The position numbers were made by a program, and so were the translations under genes. This document shows positions 4,903 to 52,770 of a stretch of 64,000 nt of DNA, in pieces. This stretch comes from an uncultured Clostridia bacterium (GTDB lineage: Bacteria > Bacillota > Clostridia > TANB77 > CAG-508), in assembly GCA_934133005.1 (NCBI GenBank), contig CAKPAI010000001.1, positions 64,478 through 128,477 of the forward strand, in the 5' to 3' direction. Positions within the stretch are counted from its first letter, which is position 1; each line of letters starts with the position of its first letter. Below the pieces are notes generated by a model, which saw only the letters and a program-made list of their open reading frames with translations, was not told the origin of the DNA and ran no database searches.

Positions 4903-5757
4903 TTATAAAATTAAATCTATCATTAGTCCAGAAATTACAGATACTACATAAAGAATTCCCAAGATTGTTAAATTTTCTTTTATGTGTTTGTTTGATTTAA
5001 ATAGTACTAACATTCCTACTCCTGAACCTATTAATAGTCCTGCAATCATCGAACCTAGTGAAATTATATTTTGTAAATATAGCTGTGTTAAAATTACAGA
5101 ACTTGCACAGTTTGGAATAATTCCAACCAAAGCTGAAAGCATTACTCCTAGCACTGGCATGTTTACAACAATACTTGCAATTTGTTCTTCACCAATAAAG
5201 TGTACTATTGTATTTATAACAAAGCTTATTACTAAAATAAATAAAAATATATGTATTGTATGTTTTATTGCTGATTTTACAATTCCATGTTCACAATCGC
5301 AATGCTCATGGTCACACATATTTCCTACTGTTTCTTCAACAGTTTCATTCTTTTTTTCTTTATTTTTTAATTTTGATATTCCATCAATTATAAAACCAAC
5401 AACAATTCCTATTACTAATTTTATTGCAAGAATTTTTAAAATTAAGCCTATTGGTGCTGCTTCTGATATTAAAATTGGAAGCATTTCATCTGATGTAGAT
5501 AAAAATACAGCAATTAGTGTTCCCATTGTTATTATTCTTCCACTATATAAATTGGCTGCTGTTGCACTAAATCCACATTGTGGAACAACTCCTAATATTC
5601 CACCAAATAGTGGTCCTAATTTTCCTGATTTTTCTACAATATTTCTTACTTTTCCACTTGTTTTATGCTCTAAATATTCCATTAGCAAATATGCCAAAAA
5701 TAAAAATGGTATTAGTTTAAGGCTATCTACAAGTGTATCCTCTATTACTTCTATCAT
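4903..5757 (-). CDS. polytopic membrane protein, putative metal permease (ArsP/DUF2899-like) with a His/Cys-rich loop
   Basis: Multiple TM segments and a CDHEHCDCEH loop. The antisense ORF 4982-5770 is rejected. Confidence 0.4.
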   Translation of the reverse strand: MIEVIEDTLVDSLKLIPFLFLAYLLMEYLEHKTSGKVRNIVEKSGKLGPLFGGILGVVPQCGFSATAANLYSGRIITMGTLIAVFLSTSDEMLPILISEAAPIGLILKILAIKLVIGIVVGFIIDGISKLKNKEKKNETVEETVGNMCDHEHCDCEHGIVKSAIKHTIHIFLFILVISFVINTIVHFIGEEQIASIVVNMPVLGVMLSALVGIIPNCASSVILTQLYLQNIISLGSMIAGLLIGSGVGMLVLFKSNKHIKENLTILGILYVVSVISGLMIDLIL

Positions 5758-5868
5758 TAATTTCTCCTAAAATATTTTATTATCTTTCTAACTTTATTAT
5801 AATATCACAATTATTTTATTTTTGCAATCTTTTTATGTAAATTATTTATATTCATTATATAAAAAAGA

Positions 5869-5891
5869 AGAGCTCTAAGCTCTCCTTTTTT
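5869..5891 (-). terminator. rho-independent terminator downstream of tRNA-Met
   Basis: AGAGC-TCTAA-GCTCT hairpin flanked by an A-run and a T-run. Confidence 0.5.
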
Positions 5892-5918
5892 CAATGCATA
5901 ATTTTACCACTTACGGTA

Positions 5919-5995
5919 TGGTAGCGAAGAATGGACTTGAACCATCGACCTGCCGGGTATGAACCGGATGCTCTAGCCAACTGAGCTACTTCGCC
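5919..5995 (-). tRNA. tRNA-Met (anticodon CAT)
   Basis: Reverse complement GGCGAAGTAGCTCAGTTGGCTAGAGCATCCGGTTCATACCCGGCAGGTCGATGGTTCAAGTCCATTCTTCGCTACCA folds as a cloverleaf with anticodon loop TTCATAC. Position 1-72 is a G·U pair. Confidence 0.85.
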
Positions 5996-6080
5996 ATGTC
6001 TGCAAGACAAATATTATTATAAACGTAAAAATTATTTTTGTCAAGAAAATTTTTAATATTTGTCTATTTTTTATAAAAAA

Positions 6081-6512
6081 TTATCTTTCTGGTTCGTTAT
6101 TACCTCTTTTTAAAATATCTGTAAATTTATTTAAATCACCATATTCACTGTCTGTTTTTTCTTTTGCTGATTTTTGTTTATCTTCATCATCTATTTTCGG
6201 TTTAATACTTCTACTTGTAGTAGTTTTAGTTTTTTTCTCTTCTTGTGCTTTTACTTTAGCTTTTGATGGTTTCTTCTCTTTTACATCTTCAGATTGAATA
6301 GGCTCGTCAAAAGAAATACCTCCTTTTTGACCTGGCTTATAATGAGATATAATATTTTCTATAAATTTTAAATGTTCCCTTAAATAGGTAGATAAACTAC
6401 TAACAGGAACTTCTTCTATATTGTCTGGTTTAAAAAAATCAGTAATTGAATGCCAAAATTTTGAAACAAAAGAACCAAATCTGGCCCAAATATTTTTTTT
6501 GCTAGATGTCAT
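6081..6512 (-). CDS. hypothetical protein with a Lys/Glu-rich C-terminus
   Basis: ORF only. Tightly packed with the two upstream minus-strand genes. Confidence 0.35.
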   Translation of the reverse strand: MTSSKKNIWARFGSFVSKFWHSITDFFKPDNIEEVPVSSLSTYLREHLKFIENIISHYKPGQKGGISFDEPIQSEDVKEKKPSKAKVKAQEEKKTKTTTSRSIKPKIDDEDKQKSAKEKTDSEYGDLNKFTDILKRGNNEPER

Positions 6513-11689: not shown

Positions 11690-11837
11690 TATCATTCCTT
11701 CTCTATTATTATATTCGACACAAATCAAAGTTTCCCTTCTTTATTCGCCACAATATGTAAACTATTTTGAACATATGTTAAAAGACTAACAATTTTATTA
11801 GTTAGTCTTTCTCGTTAGTGTTATATCATTTATTTTA

Positions 11838-13690: not shown

Positions 13691-13901
13691 ATTATTAACC
13701 TCCTAAAATTTGCAAAATTTTTTGTTAAATTTTGCCCTCTGTTCCTATATTTATATTACATTCTAGTATTAAAGTCAAGCAATTTTTAGCATTCGACAAA
13801 ACTTCTAAAAAAATTTGGTTGTTAGCTTACAGACTTCGACAGACTTTTTAATTTTTGCGTTGTATAATTATGTCATCCTCTATAGAAAGGAGGTGAGCAA
13901 G

Positions 13902-14036
13902 TTGAATAATCAGAATCGAAAGAGAAAAAATACCAAAAAGAAACCTTTCAAATTTTTACATAGTATATTAATTATACTTAAGTATTTTTTGAGGATTTCT
14001 CAGGTATTGAAATCAATTATTGATTTATTTCATTAA
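13902..14036 (+). CDS. small basic/hydrophobic peptide (44 aa), candidate type I toxin
   Basis: TTG start 8 nt after AAAGGAGG, in frame with track ORF 13815-14036. Same promoter/SD/terminator/repeat architecture as the three 22-aa modules. Confidence 0.4.
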   Translation: MNNQNRKRKNTKKKPFKFLHSILIILKYFLRISQVLKSIIDLFH

Positions 14037-14040
14037 TTGA

Positions 14041-14075
14041 AAAAAGCAGGCATTAGCAACATGCCTGCTTTTTTA
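14041..14075. terminator. bidirectional rho-independent terminator
   Basis: GCAGGCATTAGCAACATGCCTGC followed by TTTTTT, with an A-run upstream. Confidence 0.6.
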
Positions 14076-14115
14076 TTTCCTCTAATAGAAATTTGGTTTG
14101 TTGAATAATCACTTC

Positions 14116-14150
14116 AATAATTATTATACTATATTCTAAAATTTTTGCAA
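14116..14150 (-). promoter_or_regulatory. convergent sigma-A-like promoter (TTGCAA-N16-TATAAT) reading antisense into the small-ORF terminator
   Basis: -35 at plus 14145-14150 and -10 at plus 14123-14128. A direct repeat GTTGAATAATCA at 14099-14110 copies the ORF start region 13901-13912. Confidence 0.4.
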
Positions 14151-14191
14151 CACATTTTTCAAAACTTTACTAAAAATCGTTCGACAAAAAT

Positions 14192-18012: not shown

Positions 18013-19884
18013 CTACACAAGCACCGCACGGAACCCGTAGATGCAAGCGGCAGTGCCATCAAGACGGTTGAAACAGAAGAGACCAGCACCGTAGCCAGTG
18101 CCCCACCCACCACCGCGAAGGAAGAACGGACCATCCAGTGAAAGAAAGTACGAGCAATCATTATACCAGCTCGAGTTACCATTTCCTTCTGTTGATGTTT
18201 CAAATATAGCACTACCGTATATTACTCTATTTACTTTGCTACCGTTAGTAGCACTCTGCAAGCCTTTTGCATAATTGTAGTTTAATATACTTGCTGCAGT
18301 GTAATCATCTCCACTATATGTTCCAGCTTTTTCATCTGGACTATATGCATACATAGTTGCATATTTACTACTTGCATTTAATAAATTTCCTTTTTCATCT
18401 GTTACAAATGCTTTTTTATTCTTCGTTGCACTTGTATATGCATTATAACTATTTCCATATGATGTATGGTTAGATGTTGTTTTATTTGTTATATAATCAG
18501 CTGTTCTTTCCCATTCTCCTCCTGACATATCAAATATTCCATACACATTTCCTGTTGTACTTGATTTTCCTCCACCAACTTCATTCCATACTTTTATATT
18601 AGCAGATTTTCTTTTATCTGCATCATTTACTTGATCTATACTTGATATTAATACAGAGCCGTCACTTGCATCTCTACTTGATTCTACTCCTGTTATAGCA
18701 TATACTCCTAAATATGGATTTACATATTTACCATTTCCATCTTTTGTGTCATCTGCAACTGTTCCACTTGCTGTTCCACTATTCATATTTACATTATTTA
18801 TATAAATATCATCTTTATTTAAACCATATTTACTTTTTCCTAAATATGCTGCAGCTCCCCATTCACTATTTTTCATTAAATGACTATCTGTATCACTACT
18901 TAATCCATATACATTATTATTTTCATTTAGAACACTACATAATGCAAATGCTTCTTTATGGTTTACATAGTTCATAGAATATGAAGTTCCTTGAAATGAT
19001 GGATAACTTATTTTTGTTTCTGTGTTTCCATACTCTCCATCAAGCCAGTTTCTTGCTTTTATACTACCATCAAATTTTCCAGTAGTTGTTACATCTTCTC
19101 CCTTATCGTTTTTACTTGTTTGCTCTGTAACTTTACTTTCTGCATATGCAGCCCATACACTACCTTGTGTATATTTTACTGTACTTTTTATATTTGGTGT
19201 AGAATTTCCATTTGATGTTGCAAATCCAGCCTCAAATTTTGCTACCCATATTCCAGTAAGTTCACTATCCCATCCTCCATTTGCAAATCCAATTGAGCTT
19301 TCATTTGTAAATGCTGGATGAACAGTATATTCATTACTTGTGTCTGGTGTATAATCTGTCGTTGCACGAGCTGCCTTTTTTATTTTTCCTTCTGATTCGT
19401 AATAATAATCAGTTTTTCCAATTAGAAATACCACATCAAATGTTTTTGTTTCACTATTTACTTTATATGCAAATCTTGGCACCCATACCCACATACTTCC
19501 ATCTTTAGTCTGCGCATTTGCCCAATGCTTTGCATCATAATCATACCATTTACTATCTCCAATAGTAGTTGTTTTTGCATTATACATTTTTGTAGTGCTA
19601 TTTTCTTCAAAATATATTGGTGTCATTCCTGTTTTTAAACTTGGTTTATTCACCCCATTATCATATTCAGATGATACTTGTGATATTTGAGCTTCAAGTT
19701 CTTCTATTGTGCTATACTCACCCTCTGTTGCATCTTTAGTTGCTTTTGCAGCTTCTTTTGCTCTTGCTATCAATCCATTTTGTCCTACTACCAAATTTAT
19801 TGATACACCTGCTAAAATTAAAAGTACTACTATTGTAACTACCAAAGCAACTAATGTTATTCCTAAATCCCTATTTCTTTTCAT
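18013..19884 (-). CDS. prepilin-like N-terminus / FGE-sulfatase (SUMF1-like) domain surface protein, copy 1
   Basis: N-terminus MKRNRDLG|ITLVALVVTIVVLLILAGV is a short basic leader followed by a hydrophobic helix, with Glu5 replaced by Ala. The C-terminal domain carries MWVWVPRF..., GIFDMSGGEWERT, RGGGW and GFRAVLV, all FGE-sulfatase hallmarks. A long S/T/N/G/Y-rich region sits in between. Confidence 0.6.
   Translation of the reverse strand: MKRNRDLGITLVALVVTIVVLLILAGVSINLVVGQNGLIARAKEAAKATKDATEGEYSTIEELEAQISQVSSEYDNGVNKPSLKTGMTPIYFEENSTTKMYNAKTTTIGDSKWYDYDAKHWANAQTKDGSMWVWVPRFAYKVNSETKTFDVVFLIGKTDYYYESEGKIKKAARATTDYTPDTSNEYTVHPAFTNESSIGFANGGWDSELTGIWVAKFEAGFATSNGNSTPNIKSTVKYTQGSVWAAYAESKVTEQTSKNDKGEDVTTTGKFDGSIKARNWLDGEYGNTETKISYPSFQGTSYSMNYVNHKEAFALCSVLNENNNVYGLSSDTDSHLMKNSEWGAAAYLGKSKYGLNKDDIYINNVNMNSGTASGTVADDTKDGNGKYVNPYLGVYAITGVESSRDASDGSVLISSIDQVNDADKRKSANIKVWNEVGGGKSSTTGNVYGIFDMSGGEWERTADYITNKTTSNHTSYGNSYNAYTSATKNKKAFVTDEKGNLLNASSKYATMYAYSPDEKAGTYSGDDYTAASILNYNYAKGLQSATNGSKVNRVIYGSAIFETSTEGNGNSSWYNDCSYFLSLDGPFFLRGGGWGTGYGAGLFCFNRLDGTAACIYGFRAVLV
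18150..19884. repeat. ~1.7-kb segmental duplication, copy A (pairs with 27010-28737)
   Basis: Positions 18160-19295 are identical to 27021-28155 base for base. About 95% identity extends to roughly 19690 and about 80% further 5'. Confidence 0.9.
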
Positions 19885-20810: not shown

Positions 20811-22910
20811 TTATTGTTCTTCAGTTGAATTTTCTTTATTTTCTACAATTTCAAAATCAATATTTCTCAATTGCTTGTCTGCTCCAATTACTCTAATTTT
20901 TACTTTATCTCCGACGCCATAAGTTTTTTTAGTTCTATCTCCGATTAACTTCTTTCTTACATCGTCATAAACAAAGTATTCATCGCCTAAATTATCAAAT
21001 TTTACTAAGCCTTCAACTGTGTTTTCTAGTTCAACAAACATTCCAAATGAAGTTACGCTAGATACAATTCCATCATATTCTTCGCCAATTTTAGACTTCA
21101 TAAACTCAGCCTTTTTGATGTCTTCTGCATCTCGTTCAACTTTTTTTGCAACTTTTTCACATTCAGATGAACTTTCAGCATATTTTACAGCTTCTGTTTC
21201 ATACTTCTTTCTAAGTTCTTCATTTATATTGTAATTATGTTTCAAATAAGAAGATATTACTCTATGAATGAATAAGTCTGGATATCTTCTTATTGGTGAT
21301 GTAAAATGACAATAGTTTTTGCTTGCAATTCCAAAGTGACCATTATTTTCACTCTCATATTTTGCAACTTTTAAAGTTCTTAAAATCAAGTTTGAAATTA
21401 CTTTTTCTTCTGGCTTTCCTTTCACTTCATCAAGAACTTGTGCAAATGCCTTTGGATGTATACTTTCTTTGTCATCCTTTTTCACACCTCTAATTTTGTA
21501 ACCTAAATTAAATAAAAATTTGTTTAATTCTTCTACTTTTTCAGGCTCTGGAATGTCATGAACTCTGTATATGAATGGTGCTTGCAAATAGTAAAAATGC
21601 TTTGCAACTGTTTCGTTTGCAGTTAGCATAAATTGCTCAATTACTTCGTTTGATTCCAAATAATCATATTTTTTTACATCTATTGCAACTCCATTTTCGT
21701 CTAAGATTATTTTGCTTTCTGGTATATCTAGATTTAAGCTTCCATTTTTATCTCTTCTTGCCTTCAAAATATCTTTTAATTTTCTCATTCTTAAAAAGTG
21801 TGGAATATATTCTTTGCAGATTTCTACTGTTTTTTGTATTTCTTTGTTTTCCTCTCCATCTGCATATTTAAAGATATTTTCAACTTCGTGATAGTTCATT
21901 CTTCTAGTAGTCTTAATCACAGATTTAAAAATATTGTAATCTACAACTTTTCCATTTTGATTAATTTTCATCATGCAAGAAATTGTAAATCTATCTTGTG
22001 CTTCGTTTAAACTACAAATTCCATTTGATAATTCTTTTGGAAGCATTGGAATTACTCTGTCCATCATATAGATGCTTGTTCCTCTTTTTATTGCTTCTTT
22101 GTCAAGTTTAGAACCAGATTTTACATAGTAGCTAACATCTGCAATATGCACACCTAAAGTATAAGTTCCGTCCTCATTTTCCTTTACATTTACTGCGTCA
22201 TCTAAGTCTTTTGCATCTTCTCCATCTATTGTAAAAATTTGCTCGCCTCTAAGGTCTACTCTTTGAGCGATATTATTTTCATCAATAGTTTGTGATATTG
22301 CTTGTGCCTCTTTTACTACATTTTCAGGAAACTCATTTGGAAGCTTGTACTCTTTTATTAAAGAAAGCATGTCAACTCCAGCTTCGTCTTTGTAACCTAA
22401 AACTTCAACAATTTCACCTTCAGATTTATTTTCTCCATTAGAATATCTAGTTATTTTAACTACTACTTTTTGATTATTTTTAGCATCCTTTGATTTCTTT
22501 TTTGGAATATAAATATCCTCAGTTTTTCCTCTATTTTCTGGAATTACAAATCCGAAATCTTTGCTTTTTTTGAAAATTCCGACTACTGTATCTAGATTAT
22601 GTTTTGTAATTTTTAAGATTTTTCCTTCTTGCTTTTTATTTGCTAATTTTATATTATCTAATATTTTTATCAAAACTTCATCACCATCTGCTGCATTTAA
22701 AGTAAATTTCGGTGCAATAAATATTTCGTTTTCGTCATCTCCAATATTTACAAATCCAAAACCTCTTTCATTTCTTCTGAAAGTTCCTATTTTGTAGCTT
22801 TCATTTTCAAGTAAGCTATTTAAATCTTCTAAATCTTCCTTTTGCGCTTTTTTAGATTTTTTATAACTCTTTTTATAAAATTCACTATGCTTTTTTTGCT
22901 TTTTCTTCAT
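20811..22910 (-). CDS. rnr: ribonuclease R
   Basis: RNB catalytic domain plus a C-terminal S1 domain. Conserved secG-rnr arrangement. Confidence 0.9.
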   Translation of the reverse strand: MKKKQKKHSEFYKKSYKKSKKAQKEDLEDLNSLLENESYKIGTFRRNERGFGFVNIGDDENEIFIAPKFTLNAADGDEVLIKILDNIKLANKKQEGKILKITKHNLDTVVGIFKKSKDFGFVIPENRGKTEDIYIPKKKSKDAKNNQKVVVKITRYSNGENKSEGEIVEVLGYKDEAGVDMLSLIKEYKLPNEFPENVVKEAQAISQTIDENNIAQRVDLRGEQIFTIDGEDAKDLDDAVNVKENEDGTYTLGVHIADVSYYVKSGSKLDKEAIKRGTSIYMMDRVIPMLPKELSNGICSLNEAQDRFTISCMMKINQNGKVVDYNIFKSVIKTTRRMNYHEVENIFKYADGEENKEIQKTVEICKEYIPHFLRMRKLKDILKARRDKNGSLNLDIPESKIILDENGVAIDVKKYDYLESNEVIEQFMLTANETVAKHFYYLQAPFIYRVHDIPEPEKVEELNKFLFNLGYKIRGVKKDDKESIHPKAFAQVLDEVKGKPEEKVISNLILRTLKVAKYESENNGHFGIASKNYCHFTSPIRRYPDLFIHRVISSYLKHNYNINEELRKKYETEAVKYAESSSECEKVAKKVERDAEDIKKAEFMKSKIGEEYDGIVSSVTSFGMFVELENTVEGLVKFDNLGDEYFVYDDVRKKLIGDRTKKTYGVGDKVKIRVIGADKQLRNIDFEIVENKENSTEEQ

Positions 22911-22978
22911 TTTATCTCACCTCTTTCTTGCAAAAAAACGACAGACTATTCAAAATCTGTCGCCTTATTTTGATTTAT

Positions 22979-23230
22979 CTATGCTGCAACATATACTATT
23001 CCTAAAGCTATTGCTAGTACTACAAATGCAACACCTAATATAATAGTCCATTTCTTCATTTTTCCTTCATGAGTTCTAGTTTTGTTCTTCTCATAGAAAT
23101 TGTTTGTTGATGAACCTACTATTGTTCCAGAAGCTCCATTTGAATCTTTATTTTGCATCATTGTTATTACAATTAAAGCTAAACAGTCAATTACATATAA
23201 AACCATTAAAACATACTTTAATATTTGCAT
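22979..23230 (-). CDS. secG: preprotein translocase subunit SecG
   Basis: Two TM segments with an LQ..K..G loop. Confidence 0.75.
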   Translation of the reverse strand: MQILKYVLMVLYVIDCLALIVITMMQNKDSNGASGTIVGSSTNNFYEKNKTRTHEGKMKKWTIILGVAFVVLAIALGIVYVAA

Positions 23231-23359
23231 TTTATTATCTCCTTTTGTAACATTTATTTAACAAATCATATTGTATCATAAAATTATTGGAATTGCAATT
23301 ATTTTTATGATATATAATATACTTTCCTTTTTCTTAAAGGAGAAAGGGGGTGTTCTCAG

Positions 23360-23428
23360 TTGAGAAAATTTATTAAGATATTAGTTCTTATTATCGTTCT
23401 CATTATTGTAGACGATGATAAAGACTAA
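23360..23428 (+). CDS. 22-aa hydrophobic peptide LRKFIKILVLIIVLIIVDDDKD, Fst/Ibs-like candidate type I toxin
   Basis: AAAGGAGAAAGGGGGTG followed by a TTG start. Paralogous to 24702-24770 and 46149-46217. Missing from the ORF track because it is under 60 aa and TTG-initiated. Confidence 0.45.
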   Translation: MRKFIKILVLIIVLIIVDDDKD

Positions 23429-23468
23429 AAAAAACAAACAGCATAATTGCTACACTGCTTGTTTTATT

Positions 23469-24311
23469 TTAGCTAAATAACTTTGTGAAAGTTTCTTTCC
23501 CTACAATTCCATCTACATTTAAACCATTTTTCTTTTGTAAATCTTTTACTGCATTTAGGGTACTGCTTCCAAAGATTCCATCTGTTTCAATATCATAGCC
23601 TTTGCAAACTAGCATTGCTTGAATTAAATAGGTTATATTTCCAGTTGCTCCTTTTTGTACTGTTGCACAAGCATTTTTTGTTTCATTTCCAAACATCCCG
23701 TCAACGACAATGTTACTTCCAAATTGACTATTTAACTCTACTTGTAATCCTTTTATTAAAGCTTTCCTTGTCTCATTTCCATAAATATTATCTACTTTTA
23801 TGTTAGTATTATACTTTTTATTTACACTTTGTTGGATCTCAGCAATTTTTTTATTATCTATTTCATTTTTAGCTGTTATATTTTGCATTATTTCATCAAA
23901 CGGAAAATTTTTACCTGGACAATTAGTATTATTTACATCTCTATGACATTGCACTACATTTATATTATATTTTGCCATCAAATATTTTATTAATTCCGTA
24001 AAAGCTTTCCTTTGTACCACGGGCATATTTTCTTCCATATATTTGCCCTCTGCGCAAATTCCAATGGAATCATAGTTTGATCCATATGCGTGTGCTCCGA
24101 CAGCATTTTCTTCTCTTCCCCTAAAAATATTCCCTTTTTTATCTATAAAAAAATGGTATCCTATTTTACACCATCCATTTTCCTTATGCCACTTATCTAT
24201 ATCTTCAACACTGCATTTACTGGCATCGGCATGATGCAAAATTATTCTTGTAGTTTTTGTTCTATAATCCATGTTTCCTTTTGTTTCAAAAGTTTTCTCT
24301 ATAATTCTCAT
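23469..24311 (-). CDS. N-acetylmuramoyl-L-alanine amidase (Amidase_2/PGRP) with two C-terminal PG_binding_1 repeats
   Basis: Amidase_2 motifs (IILHHADA, HAYGSN), with duplicated GIFGSSTLNAVKDLQKKNGL / GMFGNETKNA repeats. Confidence 0.8.
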   Translation of the reverse strand: MRIIEKTFETKGNMDYRTKTTRIILHHADASKCSVEDIDKWHKENGWCKIGYHFFIDKKGNIFRGREENAVGAHAYGSNYDSIGICAEGKYMEENMPVVQRKAFTELIKYLMAKYNINVVQCHRDVNNTNCPGKNFPFDEIMQNITAKNEIDNKKIAEIQQSVNKKYNTNIKVDNIYGNETRKALIKGLQVELNSQFGSNIVVDGMFGNETKNACATVQKGATGNITYLIQAMLVCKGYDIETDGIFGSSTLNAVKDLQKKNGLNVDGIVGKETFTKLFS

Positions 24312-24332
24312 ATTTTTTTACTTTACAGGATA

Positions 24333-24548
24333 TTACTTTTTATTTAATCTATCTTCCGAATTTTTATCTGCTTTTCCTTTAGAAAAATAATATGCAAATA
24401 CAGACGAAGTAATAGAACTAAATAAAGTAAAAACTATTTGGAACATTTCCCAGTTTTCTTTAATAGCTACAATAATTAAAAGAGTTATAATTGTTATTGT
24501 AAATGCTATTGTTACAAAACTTTTTAAATCTTTCCATGCCTGTTTCAT
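24333..24548 (-). CDS. holin-like small membrane protein (2 TM, charged C-terminus)
   Basis: 71 aa, lying 21 bp upstream of the amidase on the same strand. Confidence 0.4.
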   Translation of the reverse strand: MKQAWKDLKSFVTIAFTITIITLLIIVAIKENWEMFQIVFTLFSSITSSVFAYYFSKGKADKNSEDRLNKK

Positions 24549-24701
24549 ACTAACCTCCTGCTATATTTTATGCAGACGGCTAATAAATGTTAAAATACCT
24601 AAATTTTTTTTATTTAGACTACACGTTTTGACAAACTTTGCAACATTTTTGTTATATAATATAGTTCCTTTATCCCTAAAGGAGAAAGGGGGTGTTCTCA
24701 A

Positions 24702-24770
24702 TTGAGAAGACTAATAGAGATATTAGCTCTTATTATTGTTTATATTATAATAAACAATGATAAAGACTAA
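24702..24770 (+). CDS. 22-aa hydrophobic peptide (M/L)RRLIEILALIIVYIIINNDKD, Fst/Ibs-like candidate type I toxin
   Basis: Promoter TTGACA 24628-24633 with an extended -10. SD AAAGGAGAAAGGGGGTG and a TTG start. Terminator immediately downstream. Confidence 0.5.
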   Translation: MRRLIEILALIIVYIIINNDKD

Positions 24771-24776
24771 AAAGGT

Positions 24777-24808
24777 AAAACCTAGGAACCGCATTCCTAG
24801 GTTTTTTG
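24777..24808. terminator. bidirectional rho-independent terminator
   Basis: AAAACCTAGGAACCGCATTCCTAGGTTTTTT. Confidence 0.65.
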
Positions 24809-24842
24809 TTCTCATTGAGAAAAACTAATTTTTAGCTTTCGC

Positions 24843-24880
24843 TATAATTATTATATAGCTATTTATATTATATGTCAATT
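24843..24880 (-). promoter_or_regulatory. convergent consensus sigma-A promoter (TTGACA-N17-TATAAT) for a putative ~65-nt antisense RNA
   Basis: -35 at plus 24873-24878 and -10 at plus 24850-24855. The transcript would cover repeat 24803-24836 (a copy of the toxin SD/start region) and end at the shared terminator. Confidence 0.45.
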
Positions 24881-24930
24881 ATTTTTTAATTATTCCTCTT
24901 ATAATGATATACATTTTTTCGACAATTTCC

Positions 24931-24949
24931 GGTACCACCGGTGGGACTC
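24931..24949. repeat. 19-bp direct repeat of the tRNA-Leu 3' end (att-like scar)
   Basis: GGTACCACCGGTGGGACTC is identical to 25029-25047 inside tRNA-Leu. No complete second tRNA folds here. Confidence 0.6.
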
Positions 24950-25027
24950 TACCCGCGGGCTATAAAATGTCCACAGGACATTTTAATTAACGCCCTATTC
25001 TCGTCCCTTTATAGTTTTTCTAATTGT

Positions 25028-25110
25028 TGGTACCACCGGTGGGACTCGAACCCACATGGTTTCCCGCCGGATTTTGAATCCGGTGCGTCTGCCAGTTCCG
25101 CCACGGTGGC
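25028..25110 (-). tRNA. tRNA-Leu (anticodon CAA), type II with long variable arm
   Basis: Reverse complement GCCACCGTGGCGGAACTGGCAGACGCACCGGATTCAAAATCCGG...GGGTTCGAGTCCCACCGGTGGTACCA, with anticodon loop TTCAAAA. Confidence 0.85.
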
Positions 25111-25207
25111 ATATATTATTATAGTATGAAAACTACTTTCATACTATAACATATTTTTAGATTATTGTCTAGAATTTTTTAAATTTTAAATTAAAATATA
25201 TAAACTT

Positions 25208-26149
25208 TTATTCCTTAACTTTGCATTCATTCCCATCACATATAACTACTATCGTTCCTTGCAAATCAGTCCTATAAACTTTGGTATTAAGTTTGTTCAA
25301 TTTGTCTAACGTAGTTTGTTTAGGATGTCCATATGAATTATCTTTTCCAACAGAAATCACAGCAATTTTAGGATGTACTTGCTCTAAAAAATTTTCTGAT
25401 GAACTAGTATCTGAACCATGATGTGCTACTTTTAACACTGTCGTTTCCGGCCAGTTTCGTGCTTGTTCGTTCTCAACTTCCATGTCTCCTGTAAATAAAA
25501 AGCTTTGTGTTCCATATACCATTCTTATTACAATTGAAGATAAATTCAAATTCTTCTTTTCTTTGGTACTTCCTGTACCACAAGCCATTATTTCACATTT
25601 TGCATTTCCAAGTTCAAATACTTCTCCAACATTTGGTGAAGTAATTTTTAAATTTTTCTTAGCCACTGAATCTAAAACAGATTCAAATGTTTTAGTATTT
25701 GTCTGTACTTTTGGCATATAAATCGTTCCAATTTCAAAATTGTCTATCACATCATCTAATCCACCAATATGGTCTTCATGTGGATGCGTTCCAACTAAAT
25801 AGTCAATTTTCAAAATACCTAAATCATTTAAATATTTCACTACAGTTTTACCAGTCTCATTTGTTCCTGCATCAATTAACATATTCTTTCCATCACTCTG
25901 CACTAAAATAGAGTCAGCCTGTCCAACATCTATAAAGTGAACTATTACATTTTCACCTTTTATAACTTCTGTTTGTAAAGTTTGATTTGTATTTTGAACT
26001 TCTCCACTTATATAGTTCTTAGCATCTTCATATAAGTTTTTACTCTGATTCTTTATATCCTCAAAATCTATTCCTAGCAATGCAATTATTACAATAGCTA
26101 CTGCAATTATTATTTTGTAGATGATTTTATTTTTCTTTCTTCTCCCCAT
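25208..26149 (-). CDS. membrane-anchored MBL-fold metallo-hydrolase (ComEC C-terminal-like)
   Basis: HPHEDHIGG motif, an N-terminal TM segment and an AHHGSD region. Confidence 0.75.
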   Translation of the reverse strand: MGRRKKNKIIYKIIIAVAIVIIALLGIDFEDIKNQSKNLYEDAKNYISGEVQNTNQTLQTEVIKGENVIVHFIDVGQADSILVQSDGKNMLIDAGTNETGKTVVKYLNDLGILKIDYLVGTHPHEDHIGGLDDVIDNFEIGTIYMPKVQTNTKTFESVLDSVAKKNLKITSPNVGEVFELGNAKCEIMACGTGSTKEKKNLNLSSIVIRMVYGTQSFLFTGDMEVENEQARNWPETTVLKVAHHGSDTSSSENFLEQVHPKIAVISVGKDNSYGHPKQTTLDKLNKLNTKVYRTDLQGTIVVICDGNECKVKE

Positions 26150-26171
26150 TTTTCTCTATTCCTCATACGTT

Positions 26172-26549
26172 TTAATTCCATAAATCATTCATTTTTTTAG
26201 CAATTCTGTCTTCTATTTCTTCTTGCTTTTCTTTATCTTTTATATACTTTCCATTAACTTCTTTTATTAGATCTCCATCTTGTATATCTTCAGGCAAATT
26301 TTCTTTTTTTAGATTTACAATTTGACCATTTTCTCTATTTTCGCAAACAACAAAATCGCCTTCAATTCTATCAACTGTATATTCTTCATTCATATTTTTT
26401 AATTTATTCTCCAATTCTTTTATAAAACTATTCACAAACTTTTTAAAATCTTGTTGAACTATGTCAAGATTAAATCCTTCTAATTTTATAATATTCTCCT
26501 TCCTCACACATTCCTTAATTATTATATCTTTACAGGTTGTTTTTTGCAA
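26172..26549 (-). CDS. DUF3006-like small protein
   Basis: DRIEGDFVVCE motif, upstream of the MBL hydrolase on the same strand. Confidence 0.4.
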   Translation of the reverse strand: MQKTTCKDIIIKECVRKENIIKLEGFNLDIVQQDFKKFVNSFIKELENKLKNMNEEYTVDRIEGDFVVCENRENGQIVNLKKENLPEDIQDGDLIKEVNGKYIKDKEKQEEIEDRIAKKMNDLWN

Positions 26550-26862: not shown

Positions 26863-28737
26863 CTACACAAGCACCGCACGGAACCCGTTGTTGTAATTGG
26901 CATTGCCATTATTACGGTTGAAATAGAACAGACCAGCACCATTGCCATTATCCCATCTACCACCGCGAATGAAGAACGGATTATTCAGCGAAGGAAAGTA
27001 CGAGCAGTCATTATACCAGCTCGAGTTACCATTTCCTTCTGTTGATGTTTCAAATATAGCACTACCGTATATTACTCTATTTACTTTGCTACCGTTAGTA
27101 GCACTCTGCAAGCCTTTTGCATAATTGTAGTTTAATATACTTGCTGCAGTGTAATCATCTCCACTATATGTTCCAGCTTTTTCATCTGGACTATATGCAT
27201 ACATAGTTGCATATTTACTACTTGCATTTAATAAATTTCCTTTTTCATCTGTTACAAATGCTTTTTTATTCTTCGTTGCACTTGTATATGCATTATAACT
27301 ATTTCCATATGATGTATGGTTAGATGTTGTTTTATTTGTTATATAATCAGCTGTTCTTTCCCATTCTCCTCCTGACATATCAAATATTCCATACACATTT
27401 CCTGTTGTACTTGATTTTCCTCCACCAACTTCATTCCATACTTTTATATTAGCAGATTTTCTTTTATCTGCATCATTTACTTGATCTATACTTGATATTA
27501 ATACAGAGCCGTCACTTGCATCTCTACTTGATTCTACTCCTGTTATAGCATATACTCCTAAATATGGATTTACATATTTACCATTTCCATCTTTTGTGTC
27601 ATCTGCAACTGTTCCACTTGCTGTTCCACTATTCATATTTACATTATTTATATAAATATCATCTTTATTTAAACCATATTTACTTTTTCCTAAATATGCT
27701 GCAGCTCCCCATTCACTATTTTTCATTAAATGACTATCTGTATCACTACTTAATCCATATACATTATTATTTTCATTTAGAACACTACATAATGCAAATG
27801 CTTCTTTATGGTTTACATAGTTCATAGAATATGAAGTTCCTTGAAATGATGGATAACTTATTTTTGTTTCTGTGTTTCCATACTCTCCATCAAGCCAGTT
27901 TCTTGCTTTTATACTACCATCAAATTTTCCAGTAGTTGTTACATCTTCTCCCTTATCGTTTTTACTTGTTTGCTCTGTAACTTTACTTTCTGCATATGCA
28001 GCCCATACACTACCTTGTGTATATTTTACTGTACTTTTTATATTTGGTGTAGAATTTCCATTTGATGTTGCAAATCCAGCCTCAAATTTTGCTACCCATA
28101 TTCCAGTAAGTTCACTATCCCATCCTCCATTTGCAAATCCAATTGAACTTTCATTTGTAAATGCTGGATGAACTGTATATTCATTGCTTGTGTCTGGTGT
28201 ATAATCTGTTGTTGCACGAACTGCCTTTTTTATTTTTCCTTCTGATTCGTAATAATAATCAGTTTTTCCAATTAGAAATACTACATCAAATGTTTTTGTT
28301 GCACTATTTACTTTATATGCAAATCTTGGCACCCACACCCACATACTTCCATCTTTAGTCTGTGCATTTGCCCAATGTTTTGCATCATAATCATACCATT
28401 TACTATCTCCAACAGTAGTTGTTTTTGCATCATACATTTTTGTAGTACTATTTTCCTCAAAATATATTGGTGTCATTCCTGTTTTTAAACTTGGTTTATT
28501 CACTTTATCATACTCTGATGATACTTGTGATATTTGAGCCTCAAGTTCTTCTATTGTACTATACTCACCTGCTGCCGCGTCTTTAGTTGCCTTTGCAGAC
28601 TCCTTTGCTCTTGCAATAATTCCATTATCACCAACAAGTGTGTTAATTGTTACTCCTGCTAAAATTAGCAATACAATTATTGTTACAACTAATGCTACTA
28701 ACGTAATACCTGCATTACTTCTAATTTTCTTTTTCAT
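26863..28737 (-). CDS. prepilin-like N-terminus / FGE-sulfatase domain surface protein, copy 2
   Basis: MKKKIRSNAG|ITLVALVVTIIVLLILAGV. The central ~1.1 kb is identical to copy 1. The C-terminal cassette differs and reads RGGRWDNGNGAGLFYFNRNNGNANYNNGFRAVLV. Confidence 0.6.
   Translation of the reverse strand: MKKKIRSNAGITLVALVVTIIVLLILAGVTINTLVGDNGIIARAKESAKATKDAAAGEYSTIEELEAQISQVSSEYDKVNKPSLKTGMTPIYFEENSTTKMYDAKTTTVGDSKWYDYDAKHWANAQTKDGSMWVWVPRFAYKVNSATKTFDVVFLIGKTDYYYESEGKIKKAVRATTDYTPDTSNEYTVHPAFTNESSIGFANGGWDSELTGIWVAKFEAGFATSNGNSTPNIKSTVKYTQGSVWAAYAESKVTEQTSKNDKGEDVTTTGKFDGSIKARNWLDGEYGNTETKISYPSFQGTSYSMNYVNHKEAFALCSVLNENNNVYGLSSDTDSHLMKNSEWGAAAYLGKSKYGLNKDDIYINNVNMNSGTASGTVADDTKDGNGKYVNPYLGVYAITGVESSRDASDGSVLISSIDQVNDADKRKSANIKVWNEVGGGKSSTTGNVYGIFDMSGGEWERTADYITNKTTSNHTSYGNSYNAYTSATKNKKAFVTDEKGNLLNASSKYATMYAYSPDEKAGTYSGDDYTAASILNYNYAKGLQSATNGSKVNRVIYGSAIFETSTEGNGNSSWYNDCSYFPSLNNPFFIRGGRWDNGNGAGLFYFNRNNGNANYNNGFRAVLV
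27010..28737. repeat. ~1.7-kb segmental duplication, copy B (pairs with 18150-19884)
   Basis: See copy A. The flanks outside the CDS are unrelated. Confidence 0.9.
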
Positions 28738-45963: not shown

Positions 45964-46148
45964 ATCTTTGTATATAATATAACTAAAATTAGCAATTGTC
46001 AAGTACAATTGCTAATTTTTTTATAGTTTTTTATTCATCTAATATTTTTAATTTTTTCACTTCTCCTACACGCTTCGACAGACTTTGCAATTTTTATGTT
46101 ATATAATTATATTTCCTTTATCCTAAAGGAGAAAGGAGGTGCTTTTCG

Positions 46149-46217
46149 TTTGAAAAAGCTTATAAAAGTTCTAGTACTTATCATCCTTTATATGATTATA
46201 AACGATGACAAAGACTA
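46149..46217 (+). CDS. 22-aa hydrophobic peptide (M/L)KKLIKVLVLIILYMIINDDKD, Fst/Ibs-like candidate type I toxin
   Basis: AAAGGAGAAAGGAGGTG followed by a TTG start. Third paralog of this module. Confidence 0.5.
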
Positions 46218-46219
46218 AA

Positions 46220-46254
46220 GTAAAATACTAGGGATGGCAGTCCCTAGTATTTTT
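46220..46254. terminator. bidirectional rho-independent terminator
   Basis: ACTAGGGATGGCAGTCCCTAGT followed by TTTTTT, with an A-run upstream. Confidence 0.65.
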
Positions 46255-46291
46255 TGTGCATTTTCGTTGAAAAAGCTTTTAACTATATTTA

Positions 46292-46320
46292 GTATATAGC
46301 TATTTATAGTATATGTCAAT
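46292..46320 (-). promoter_or_regulatory. convergent sigma-A promoter (TTGACA-N17-TATACT) for a putative antisense RNA
   Basis: -35 at plus 46315-46320 and -10 at plus 46292-46297. The transcript would cover repeat 46255-46283 (a copy of the toxin SD/TTG region) and end at the shared terminator. Confidence 0.45.
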
Positions 46321-46374
46321 AAGAATTTCTTATTCATTTAAAAATCTTTCGACAAAATTATGCAAAAACTATTT

Positions 46375-49534: not shown

Positions 49535-50797
49535 CTATTTAATATCTTTATATTTTTTCATCTTTATTCCAAATATTACCAATAAGATAAAATTAAATGT
49601 CATTATTATATAGATAGCATTACTTACACCTGTTTTAGGTAAAGTACTTTTTGAAATTGTGTTATCTTTAGATGTGCTACTAGTTTGTTGTGCTGTCTGT
49701 GGTTTTTGTGTTTGTTCTTGCTGTTGCCCAGCTGAATCATTTTCACTAGGCTTATTATTTGTAGTTGTAGTATTTATTTTTAATGTTATTGTATCTAAAG
49801 TCTTATTTTCTGTATTTTCTTCTACAGTAATATAAAACGATTTTTTTGTTTCTCCCACATAAATATATCCATTAGCTTTTCCAACTCTTGTTCCAGTAAT
49901 TTCCACACAATTTTCATTTACCTCTTTATAATCATAGCCAGAACCAGAAATTTCGTGACCTGTAATTTTCTCTGTTGCTTCAAATCTACATTTTTGCCCA
50001 ACTTTTAATTCAATTGAATAATCAGCATTATCCTTTGTAATATCCTTATTTAAAAAAGATTCACCTATTTGGTTAGCATATCCTTTTATTTTTGAAAAGT
50101 CTGCATCAACATTTACAGTTAATGATGATACTAATTTGCAAGAAGTCTCAGTTACATCTTTTCTTTCAGTAACCAATTCATAAGAATTAATACCACTTGT
50201 CGTATCTGCTATTGTTTGTTTATCTTTGTATGTAGCATTTACATATTCCATTACTTTTTCGCCAAACTCAGAAGCATATATAGTTTTTGTATCACTTTCA
50301 TCTCTATCTATTGTAACACCATCTGACATATTAGTATCATCAATAATTACATATGAATTTTCACTTGACCAAGAGCCATTAAAAGCATTTCCTAAATATG
50401 ACATAAAAAAATATGCATTTGCATCTTCAAACTCTACACCTTGAATTTTTGCCACCGCAATATAACCAATCATAGGTAAAATTAAATTATCTGTTTGAGC
50501 TTTAAAATCTTTATAGCTCATACCTTTCTCAATAGGAATTTCTAAAGTAAATTTTGGTTTTTCTGCTAAGTTATAATTTAGAGTATAACTTTTTCCATCA
50601 ACTGCTATTGTGATGATATTATCAGATACAGTAATTTTATAATTATTTTCATTTGCACCTGACGAAACAAATTCTTGTAAAGACGCATTAAGATTTTCTT
50701 TTGTTACAGTTATAGCCGTAGCATAACAATTAATAAACAAACTATTCAATAATAAAATATTTAATATTAATAGTGTTATTTTTCTTATTTTTTGCAT
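49535..50797 (-). CDS. LPXTG-anchored cell-wall surface protein
   Basis: Signal peptide. C-terminus reads LPKTG, then a hydrophobic stretch, then KKYKDIK. A Q/T-rich stalk is present. Confidence 0.75.
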   Translation of the reverse strand: MQKIRKITLLILNILLLNSLFINCYATAITVTKENLNASLQEFVSSGANENNYKITVSDNIITIAVDGKSYTLNYNLAEKPKFTLEIPIEKGMSYKDFKAQTDNLILPMIGYIAVAKIQGVEFEDANAYFFMSYLGNAFNGSWSSENSYVIIDDTNMSDGVTIDRDESDTKTIYASEFGEKVMEYVNATYKDKQTIADTTSGINSYELVTERKDVTETSCKLVSSLTVNVDADFSKIKGYANQIGESFLNKDITKDNADYSIELKVGQKCRFEATEKITGHEISGSGYDYKEVNENCVEITGTRVGKANGYIYVGETKKSFYITVEENTENKTLDTITLKINTTTTNNKPSENDSAGQQQEQTQKPQTAQQTSSTSKDNTISKSTLPKTGVSNAIYIIMTFNFILLVIFGIKMKKYKDIK

Positions 50798-51446: not shown

Positions 51447-52770
51447 TTATTTTAAAAATAATGTTGCTCGAAAACCAGTATCATTATTTATTATTTGAAT
51501 ATATGTTGCATCCCATCTATTTCCTGCTGCTCCCAAAAATAAGCCAGAACTTCCTCCTCTAAATATTACATTATCATCAACTCCAATATTTAGTTCAGTT
51601 GTATATTCTACTACATTTCCTCCCATATCAAATATATTACTTTTAGCTCCTGTTTGCCCTGTGAGTAATTTCTTTCCTACTCCAGCTTCCTTTATTACAT
51701 ATCCATTACTATCCACCACTTGTTGATTAATCCAATTTTCATTGAATCCATTTATTGACGTTGCATAATTTGTCGCCCCATTGTTCATTATAAAATTTAT
51801 TGCTGTATCCCATGCATAACTTGAGCAAAGATATGTTGTTGCACTAGTTCCGTCTCCGATTTCTTTTGACAAGGAATATGCAGAAGACCATGTTTGCTTG
51901 CTACATACTTCTTTATTACTCTTAATAACTACTTTTTCATCTTCAACACCAACTTCATATCTTCCTATATAGTAACCTCCATATTTCTTTACACTTGCAA
52001 ACTCGCTGTTTATTTGTTTTACTATCTCTTTTGATACTTCTTCATTTATTCCATTATCTGTATCTGTTTTTAAATATGTTACATTACTATCTGTTAGTGT
52101 TAATTCGTCCTTCCACGCTTCTGTTTCATTATCGTTTTCAACATTCCATCTTGTTCTTTGATACTGTAATTTATCACTTCCATCCATTGCACATGGTATC
52201 CATACATATTCATTTCCAGTCGAATCTTCTTTTATTACTAGTCCCTTATCTACTAAGTTTTCTCCTTCTACTGTTGATACTGTAAAGCCTGTTGGTATTG
52301 GTGCTTTTTTACCATTTACATCTGTATAAACTGTACAATCTGTTGTTTCATTTTCACTAAAATCTTGACTACATATTTCTGATAATTTTATTTCATAATT
52401 TCCATACTCGGCTTTTGTTTTCAAAACTGTATCTGATTTCAAGTAATAACTTTCTGGCACATTTTCAAAATATCTATCTAATACATCCTTTAAGTTTGTA
52501 TTTAGGAATTCCATAGTTTTTACTTTCGTTTGCTCTGCTACAATTTCTGTTTGTACTTCATCTATTAAACTTGCTAACGTTGTATTCTTCGCTGCCTCTT
52601 TCGCTCTATTTATTAGTCCATTTTGTCCTACTACCAAATTTATTGTTACTCCTGCTAAAATTAAAAGCACTACTATCGTTACCACTAAAGCAACTAACGT
52701 TATACCGTGATTTTCTTTAAGATATCGGTGTGTGTGTGTGTGTGTGTGTGTACAGCCTCAAGGCTTTCAT
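51447..52770 (-). CDS. prepilin-like/FGE-domain paralog, currently out of frame with both upstream ATGs (track ORF 51447-52685 begins with GTG inside the hydrophobic helix)
   Basis: Body frame reads ...(TH)4 RYLKENHG|ITLVALVVTIVVLLILAGV... with FGE motifs NIFDMGGNVVEYT, RGGSSG and GFRATLFLK. ATG 52768-52770 (MKALRLY-) is at +1 relative to the body and ATG 52778-52780 (MKNYESLEAV-) at -1. The two are separated from the body by (GT)12. Confidence 0.5.
52728..52751. repeat. (GT)12 / (AC)12 dinucleotide microsatellite in the 5' region of the pilin-like gene
   Basis: Read directly from the sequence. It is the only long dinucleotide SSR in the window. Confidence 0.95.

Follow-up and report, generated by a model that had tools for sequence, protein, structure and literature searches.

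Type I toxin-antitoxin loci of the par type are recognised by convergent promoters, a shared bidirectional terminator, oppositely transcribed direct repeats over the toxin start, and a 5′ stem-loop that sequesters the Shine-Dalgarno sequence (SD) (PMC7472228). Two elements make up the Fst/Ldr signature, a P/D/S/TxxxG motif and a conserved Trp located where the transmembrane helix meets the charged tail (PMC7472228). Among the loci in T1TAdb, only Fst/RNAII and SprA1 interact outside the overlap region (PMC8594479). Here we analyse small, unannotated cassettes in a stretch of 64,000 nucleotides (nt) from an uncultured Clostridia bacterium (contig CAKPAI010000001.1, positions 64,478 to 128,477; the whole stretch is referred to as the window). 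The cassettes are probably type I toxin-antitoxin-like and would work by par (RNA I/RNA II) logic. A first-pass annotation of the window had proposed this logic, and all four par-type regulatory features are indeed present in silico. Since the regulatory hallmarks are found and those of Fst-family toxins are not, we favour a par-like mechanism with new toxins.

Three modules are complete (13.8-14.2 kb, 24.6-24.9 kb and 46.05-46.36 kb) and one is truncated (23.3-23.47 kb). The first-pass annotation had counted four copies; comparison with a related genome (see below) leaves the 23 kb copy with only a -10 element, an SD and an open reading frame (ORF). Each complete module has an invariant TATAAT, a 5′ hairpin that would hide the SD, a small ORF, a bidirectional terminator, a direct repeat of the start region and a convergent near-consensus promoter. 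The + strand holds all three exact copies of the SD block AAAGGAGRAAGGRGGTG in the 64 kb (23336, 24678 and 46125), against a shuffle expectation of 0.05. A TTG codon lies 7 or 8 bases past each block and opens a 22-codon ORF; the strong SD, the TTG start and the peptides are as first described. The 13.9 kb variant has the SD sequence AAAGGAGGTG, followed by a TTG-started ORF of 44 codons, the basic peptide of 44 amino acids (aa) noted earlier.

In the 24 kb module, pattern matching and module alignment place the toxin promoter block at 24627-24660 (+ strand). It consists of TTTGACA (24627-24633), a 21-nt spacer and TATAAT (24655-24660); the TTTGACA can be read as a -35-like hexamer or as a 0A-like (Spo0A-binding) box with one mismatch. 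The predicted toxin mRNA (24664-24810, +, with a predicted 5′ end) folds at -47.2 kcal/mol (z = -5.3), and a consensus structure was obtained from five homologues. It holds the 5′ anti-SD hairpin, a double SD (24678-24694), a start-codon hairpin, the ORF and the terminator. The TTG-started 22-aa ORF (24702-24770, +) is in the ORF list, has coding-type substitutions among five homologues and encodes (M)RRLIEILALIIVYIIINNDKD. Repeat copy 1 (24693-24715, +) covers the SD end, the start codon and the first codons and is the predicted antisense target. The shared bidirectional intrinsic terminator (24777-24805) is called on both strands and is followed by repeat copy 2 (24807-24829, +), whose minus-strand transcript would be the 5′ tail of the antisense RNA. 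This putative antitoxin RNA is about 75 nt long (24769-24843, - strand, both ends predicted; fold z = -3.9). Its promoter, TTGACA-17-TATAAT (24850-24878, -), matches the consensus at 12/12 positions, and the right-hand TTCGACA box (24918-24924, +), the reverse complement of the Spo0A 0A box TGTCGAA, lies beyond it.

The 46 kb module begins with a left TTCGACA box (46074-46080) and TATAAT (46102-46107), together spanning 46074-46107 (+). The SD (46125-46141) and repeat copy 1 (46139-46165) lead into a TTG-started 22-aa ORF (46150-46218, +) encoding (M)KKLIKVLVLIILYMIINDDKD. The shared terminator (46222-46253), called on one strand, is followed by the promoter TTGACA-17-TATACT (46291-46319, -) for a predicted antisense RNA of about 68 nt (46218-46284, -) that includes repeat copy 2 (46256-46282); the right-hand TTCGACA box is at 46348-46354 (+). 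In the 13.9 kb module, two TTCGACA boxes (13792-13798 and 13835-13841) and TATAAT (13863-13868) occupy 13792-13868 (+). They precede the SD (13886-13895) and the 44-aa ORF (13902-14036, +), which encodes (M)NNQNRKRKNTKKKPFKFLHSILIILKYFLRISQVLKSIIDLFH and has five homologues of about 43 aa. Two repeat pairs are present here (13901-13912/14100-14111 and 13877-13888/14079-14091). The shared terminator (14040-14074) is called on one strand, and the predicted antisense RNA of about 81 nt (14036-14116, -) includes the second copies of both repeats. Its promoter is TTGCAA-16-TATAAT (14123-14150, -), and the right-hand TTCGACA box (14180-14186, +) lies in a context, AATCGTTCGACAAAA, that is kept in homologous loci.

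The direct repeats and convergent near-consensus promoters of the first-pass annotation were thus recovered at the 24, 46 and 13.9 kb modules, where the antisense promoters match 10-12 of 12 consensus positions. A bidirectional terminator was likewise found at these three modules, that at 24777-24805 being called on both strands; the 23 kb copy uses the terminator of the adjacent amidase gene. We note that all four modules lie on the + strand and nearly all long ORFs of the window on the - strand; most transcription therefore runs against the toxin genes and in the direction of the antisense RNAs.

Start regions vary between loci, and at every locus the repeat downstream has followed the change (TGTTCTCAATTGAGAAGACTAAT, GTGCTTTTCGTTTGAAAAAGCTT, TCATTTT..GAAATCATTACTT, GTTGAATAATCA, TAATGTATTCTCCA and ATGAGCCTTC are start regions with a matching repeat). 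Predicted antisense 5′ tails were paired with toxin mRNAs with the terminator excluded, and z was calculated against shuffled tails. Because the repeat pairs co-vary between loci, the predicted duplexes are cognate-specific, at -27 to -37 kcal/mol, and bear out the pairing proposed earlier. For the 22-aa type, cognate duplexes reach -27 to -28 kcal/mol, non-cognate ones mostly -9 to -17 kcal/mol (z -6.3 to -7.2); for the 44-aa type the values are -32 to -37 and -9 to -24 kcal/mol (z -4.5 to -6.9). The individual cognate energies are -27.4 kcal/mol (z = -6.3) at 24 kb, -27.3 kcal/mol (z = -6.4) at 46 kb and -32.3 kcal/mol (z about -7) at 13.9 kb. Cross-reacting tails are seen only among the 24 kb and 23 kb copies and the related locus L002, which have a common start region. 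The duplexes reach from the SD, whose 3′ end they cover, across the start codon and over the first 5-7 codons; those of the 44-aa type comprise two or three separate blocks that also cover the 5′ untranslated region.

The toxin mRNAs fold more stably than shuffled sequences (z = -5.3 and -5.7). A CCUUU-type stretch is predicted to pair with the AAAGG of the SD in six of six 22-aa-type mRNAs, and this pairing is kept in the consensus fold. The start-codon hairpin of the consensus structure shows three compensatory changes, two from CG to UA and one from UA to AU. Full-length cofolding displays either the 5′ or the 3′ interaction and not both together, because the two cross topologically. When the 24, 46 and 13.9 kb modules, L002 and L038 were compared, four of the five were found to have a downstream repeat shortened by 1 nt, either at the start codon or immediately upstream of it; within these four, the L038 repeat is short by 4 nt, with the ATG removed. 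The predicted mRNA:antisense duplex would therefore be bulged at this point.

Two classes of peptide are encoded. The first, of 21-22 aa, has a hydrophobic core and an acidic DKD tail (grand average of hydropathy, GRAVY, 0.86-1.16; core 2.8-3.6). The second, of 43-44 aa, has a Lys/Arg-rich basic N-terminus and an amphipathic helix in its C-terminal part. Among the five 21-22-aa homologues, differences at codon positions 1/2/3 number 53/29/70, every replacement is conservative (I/L/V/M, K/R/S, D/N/G) and the sole indel is exactly one codon. In the 43-44-aa family the frame is kept, 15 columns are invariant and identity to the window peptide is 49-74%. These substitution patterns indicate that the ORFs are under coding constraint.

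The search for further copies that the first-pass annotation had suggested yielded homologues of both types. Pattern scans of sequence collections were used for the 22-aa type, the counts being those of the matches listed. The scan of genome representatives gave at least 3 matches; among the matches listed, L002, a metagenome-assembled genome of a related uncultured Clostridia species, is a real homologue, and L001 and L003 were rejected as chance matches. The metagenome scan gave at least 60 matches, and among the matches listed only L038 and L040 are true homologues. Relatives of the modules are present in further gut metagenomes. The L002 peptide is LRKLIKMLALIIVLIIIGDDKD; L038 and L040 encode MKSLLKMLALLIVYIIINDKD from an ATG start. 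Scans of IMG/VR with SD plus TTG, antisense-promoter and SD...DKD-stop patterns found no 22-aa-type module, and blastn of the 24 kb module against phage and plasmid collections gave no match. For the 44-aa peptide, a word-index protein search gave no match and a full HMMER search identified the five homologous peptides of about 43 aa. Their loci (L113-L123) lie at unrelated chromosomal sites (rimP/recG, rpmE, DUF1980).

The full scaffold is present in all of these loci that cover the whole module (L113-L115, L118, L120, L121). Across L113-L121 it starts with a box, 15 nt, TATAAT (TATACT in L121), an SD, the ORF and a bidirectional terminator, and ends with a repeat of the start region of the locus concerned, a convergent TTGCAT/TTGAAA-16/17-TATAAT promoter and a right-hand AATCGTTCGACA box. 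L117 stops at a contig edge just past the repeat, and the survey excludes L116, L119, L122 and L123, which were not read. The shared terminator was also found in L002, L038, L114, L118 and L121. Homology between modules begins about 25 nt before the left box and extends as far as the right box. On these alignments, two unrelated peptide families are carried on one putative regulatory scaffold. The 43-aa module of L113 and L115 is immediately preceded, at about 1342-1400, by an antisense promoter and a AATCGTTCGACA box, the right arm of a further module, which indicates that this genome holds tandem or nested cassettes. A 26-aa hydrophobic ORF, MLEILLAIGFVLICWSIILHQTRDKD, was seen in two metagenome contigs of higher GC content (L066, 10167-10626, and L090). 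Its sense promoter is TTGACA..TATAAT, its leader contains an anti-SD stretch, and a convergent TTGACA-17-TATAAT lies downstream; no clear intrinsic terminator was seen in L066/L090. This may be an analogous toxin-antitoxin locus in another lineage.

The modules share all four regulatory hallmarks with par, that is, with the Fst/RNA II locus of Enterococcus faecalis pAD1 and its chromosomal homologues, and the paired blocks of the 44-aa type resemble DRa/DRb of par. A small hydrophobic peptide with a charged C-terminus is a further likeness. However, the peptides have 21-22 aa and Fst has 33 aa, and neither the Trp nor the P/D/S/TxxxG motif is present; Trp, Pro and the internal Gly motif are absent from all five 21-22-aa peptides. 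Small size (<60 aa), a hydrophobic or membrane-active character and a charged end are features that the peptides of both classes share with type I toxins in general; by sequence they do not belong to the Fst family. The modules also differ from par in carrying an unrelated basic amphipathic peptide of 43-44 aa on the same scaffold, in the 21-nt spacer of the toxin promoter, in the TTCGACA boxes at their ends and in their host, one of the uncultured, probably spore-forming Clostridia. In SprA1/SprA1AS (PepA1) of Staphylococcus aureus, as predicted for the modules, the overlap of antisense RNA and toxin mRNA is confined to the 3′ end of the latter, and the 5′ domain of the antisense RNA, which lies outside the overlap, acts in trans on the toxin start region (PMC8594479). 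PepA1 belongs to the Fst family, whereas the peptides described here do not, and the modules have no Rfam match.

The type I modules of Clostridioides difficile (CD0956.2-RCd10, CD2517.1-RCd8 and others) are likewise antisense-controlled small membrane peptides of Clostridia. Their toxins, in contrast, are dissimilar in sequence, have 34-59 aa, a hydrophobic N-terminus and a Lys-rich C-terminus and are made from sigma-A/sigma-B promoters, and repeat-based trans pairing has not been described for them. No homologue of the CD0956.2/CD2517.1 group was found by word-index search, and HMMER gave only the new 43-aa family. The Ibs toxins of Escherichia coli have 18-19 aa. The Ibs/Sib loci resemble the modules in their very short, extremely hydrophobic toxins and in being present in several copies per genome. 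Sib is fully antisense to the ibs ORF (PMC8594479), whereas the predicted antisense RNA of the modules does not overlap the ORF; at 24 kb its end (24769) falls at the stop codon or just beyond, the ORF ending at 24770.

A working model can be drawn from these features. The + strand would give an mRNA of about 150-200 nt for a very small membrane-active peptide. In its 5′ hairpin the CCUUU-type anti-SD stretch would pair with the ribosome-binding site; because this hairpin covers the site, the toxin mRNA should be closed to translation. An abundant RNA of about 70-80 nt, ending at the shared bidirectional terminator, would be produced on the opposite strand from a consensus sigma-A promoter. 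The 3′ hairpin of this RNA, fully complementary to the mRNA terminator, would dock there, and the repeat-encoded tail would then cover the initiation region. The tail is complementary in trans to the toxin start because it is encoded by a direct repeat of that start region. Pairing would block initiation and/or trigger degradation. We infer the transcript ends, as well as peptide toxicity, the relative stabilities of the two RNAs and the biological role. A par-like U-turn (YUNR) motif was sought by eye in the terminator loops and discarded, being present in only some of them.

The sense promoters, first annotated as sigma-A-like, are not canonical sigma-A promoters. TATAAT is invariant, and a TTGACA/TCGACA-like hexamer lies 21 nt upstream of it (19 nt from an alternative TATATA). 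In the window these promoters receive no call in a simple consensus promoter scan. TTGCAA-17-TATATT was considered as the true sense promoter and rejected, as it is conserved neither in L002 nor in the 13.9 kb module. For comparison, the -35-like and -10 elements of the spoIIG promoter are about 22 bp apart. The 21-nt spacer of the modules recalls this over-long spacing of a promoter that is activated by Spo0A. Spo0A~P is reported to activate spoIIG through weak 0A boxes.

TTCGACA occurs eight times in the window, all on the + strand, against 2.7 expected. Six of the eight lie within about 50 nt of the three complete modules, the two further copies, away from modules, being at 11714 and 35864 (+). 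One box of a module overlaps the -35-like hexamer of the toxin promoter; the other is found 28-42 nt past the antisense -35. Read on the opposite strand, TTCGACA gives the Spo0A core TGTCGAA, which is recognised by the Bacillus and C. difficile proteins (PMC3485338). The modules share exact cores of this kind with Spo0A-controlled promoters (abrB, spoIIG, spo0A, sigH, phage phi29/Nf). In Spo0A sites a consensus box is often accompanied, at a distance of 3 bp, by an imperfect one (PMC2731898). L002 (TGCGACA-TTT-TTTGACA) and L114 (TTCGACA-TTT-TTCTACA) carry a second box at exactly this distance, and the right-hand box is exact in L113-L115, L118, L120 and L121. Two points count against a role for Spo0A: L038 has no box and an ordinary TTGATT-17-TATAAT promoter, and the left box may be merely a misplaced -35 hexamer. 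Whether the motifs flanking the modules are Spo0A-binding sites is, in our judgement, evenly balanced. If Spo0A does bind, one or both RNAs would be tied to the level of Spo0A~P, that is, to stationary phase or entry into sporulation. In the literature searched, no type I toxin-antitoxin locus is reported under 0A-box control. We put forward as possible, though doubtful, the full arrangement in which a single par-like scaffold with Spo0A boxes at both ends accepts interchangeable, unrelated mini-toxins, and Spo0A~P sets the ratio of toxin to antitoxin RNA.

A promoter block of the same kind, which counts in favour of Spo0A binding, was observed in IMG/VR phage contigs (L005, L006, L010, L013, L016, L018, L025, L026, L029, L030 and L034). 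It has two tandem 7-mers 3 bp apart, the downstream one an exact TTCGACA and the upstream one exact or with one mismatch. TATAAT follows 15 nt past the boxes, and the block lies upstream of a gene for a Spo0E-like protein of about 51 aa (PF09388, 23.7 bits). This suggests that Spo0E-like genes of clostridial phages are wired to Spo0A and could feed back on it.

Other readings of the modules have to be weighed. The peptides might be antisense-controlled membrane peptides with a physiological, non-self-poisoning role, for instance as a sporulation or stationary-phase factor made at rising Spo0A~P. Such a role would suit the 0A-box motifs that flank the modules, the yabG gene of the host, the lack of relationship to known toxins, and the finding that the modules are fixed, identical in sampled strains and mostly placed among housekeeping genes. 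We nevertheless consider it unlikely: a consensus-strength antisense promoter together with double occlusion of the start site is the hallmark of a product that must stay off, and two unrelated peptides on one scaffold, in multiple, tandem and decaying copies, fit selfish or toxic cassettes better. It is hardly credible that the convergent promoter and terminator are a leader or attenuator of a downstream minus-strand gene (holin/amidase, hrcA, rubrerythrin), although the antisense promoter points toward such a gene in all three modules of the window. The downstream genes are unrelated, both in the window and in homologous loci (recG, rpmE, DUF1980), a separate TTGACA-17-TATTAT promoter serves hrcA downstream of the module, a strong terminator and the entire toxin gene intervene, and the tail is complementary to the toxin start site rather than to a downstream leader. 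The first-pass annotation had itself raised the leader as a possible objection; since the neighbours are unrelated from copy to copy (rubrerythrin, holin/amidase, hrcA, recG, rpmE and others), the block is not a leader of adjacent genes.

We regard it as highly improbable that the ORFs are incidental and the block a repeated non-coding element, for example a miniature mobile repeat or an insulator made of promoter and terminator. The homology unit does have defined ends, its presence at the secG-tRNA-Leu island (described below) varies between related genomes and a tandem arrangement occurs in L113/L115. Against this stand the codon-position bias, the conservative replacements, the kept frame, the one-codon indel, conservation of the 43-44-aa peptide down to 49%, and an SD conserved at the correct spacing; moreover, no terminal inverted repeats, target-site duplications or recombinase were seen. 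TTCGACA was also considered as the target-site duplication of a mobile element and rejected, as homology between copies extends about 25 nt beyond the left box.

A toxin-antitoxin function thus remains our preferred reading, and several observations weigh against it. The 21-nt spacing of the sense promoters is abnormal, and the hydrophobic core of the 22-aa peptides has only about 14 residues. Pfam and NCBIfam scans of all peptides gave no match at E <= 10, either to Pfam Fst_toxin or to the type I toxin models of NCBIfam. Rfam gave no family at the gathering score in the window, and E-value searches with the three modules returned only sub-threshold, terminator-like chance matches, with no antitoxin family near threshold. 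Independent homologues are few, 5 for the 22-aa peptides and 5-6 for the 44-aa peptides. The loci compared among strains sampled from the source species, retrieved by way of their amidase, HrcA and rubrerythrin proteins, are 100% identical at the modules, and there is consequently no within-species variation with which to test selection.

If the toxin-antitoxin reading is right, the cassettes add two new candidate peptide families, one of them among the shortest candidate type I toxins. Homology searches are reviewed as having found known type I toxins in almost no Clostridia (PMC6563280). Large searches of this sort found essentially none because the genes are too small and too divergent for annotation. 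The par/SprA1 design, in which a small RNA pairs in trans through a repeat, would extend to uncultured, probably spore-forming gut Clostridia. Provided that the predicted specificity is real, the co-variation of start region and repeat would offer naturally occurring candidates for orthogonal pairs of RNA regulators. Were the TTCGACA boxes real Spo0A sites, a toxin-antitoxin switch would be linked directly to the master regulator of sporulation. A ratio of the two RNAs set by Spo0A might then arrest or kill cells that start but do not complete sporulation, or silence the toxin in the spore-forming cell.

The truncated copy (23302-23465, +) comprises the junction TTTTTATG (23302-23309), TATAAT (23313-23318), an SD (23336-23352) and a TTG-started 22-aa ORF (23360-23428, +) encoding (M)RKFIKILVLIIVLIIVDDDKD; it has no repeat and no antisense promoter. 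The terminator that now serves it (23431-23465) is that of the amidase gene. L002 is syntenic with 21724-26530 of the window and has a complete module at the 23 kb site. Relative to L002, the -35/box region was lost by deletion between two TTTTTATG repeats, and a second deletion, from the stop codon to the amidase terminator, removed the copy's own terminator, repeat and antisense promoter. The 23 kb copy is thus best read as a remnant whose antitoxin arm has been deleted. Pairing of the 24 kb antisense tail with the 23 kb mRNA is predicted at -25.4 kcal/mol (full-length cofold net gain -13.5 kcal/mol), so that in such models the 24 kb RNA could cover the orphan 23 kb toxin in trans.

The 23 kb and 24 kb copies sit between secG and tRNA-Leu, together with genes for an N-acetylmuramoyl-L-alanine amidase (23469-24311, -) and a 71-aa membrane protein that may be a holin (24333-24548, -). 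The 3′ end of tRNA-Leu is duplicated (24924-24954 and 25022-25052, 84% identical). The region 23231-24954 appears to be the decayed lysis region of a prophage that had a tRNA as its attachment site; prophages and prophage-like regions are a frequent location of type I toxin-antitoxin loci, those of C. difficile included (PMC6563280). The content of the secG-tRNA-Leu interval is different in L002. Where the window has the 24 kb module, L002 has a tandemly duplicated unit of about 540 bp (5060-6130). In each unit a TTGACA..TATAAT promoter precedes a GC-richer, apparently non-coding transcript, with a terminator after it.

The genes of the window, among them rnr, secG, pheST (behind a T-box), hrcA-grpE-dnaK-dnaJ, aspS and ftsY, mark it as chromosomal DNA. 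The sporulation protease gene yabG is present, and the host is therefore probably an endospore-former. The 13.9 kb and 46 kb modules occupy ordinary intergenic regions (between rubrerythrin and pheT, and upstream of hrcA). Exact copies of window proteins occur in more than 100 assembly-index blocks, from assemblies labelled Hadza, Nepal and MERR22. Two minus-strand ORFs (18013-19884 and 26863-28737), of 623 and 624 aa, are 94% identical; neither matches Pfam, and the N-terminus of both, GITLVALVVTIVVLLILAGV, is prepilin-like. A relative of 571 aa (L002 1988-3703) adjoins the L002 module. Three consecutive minus-strand ORFs of about 412-420 aa (49535-50797, 51447-52685 and 52895-54142) also have no Pfam match, and a short stretch at 53991-54103 resembles L002 3522-3637, inside the pilin-like ORF family.

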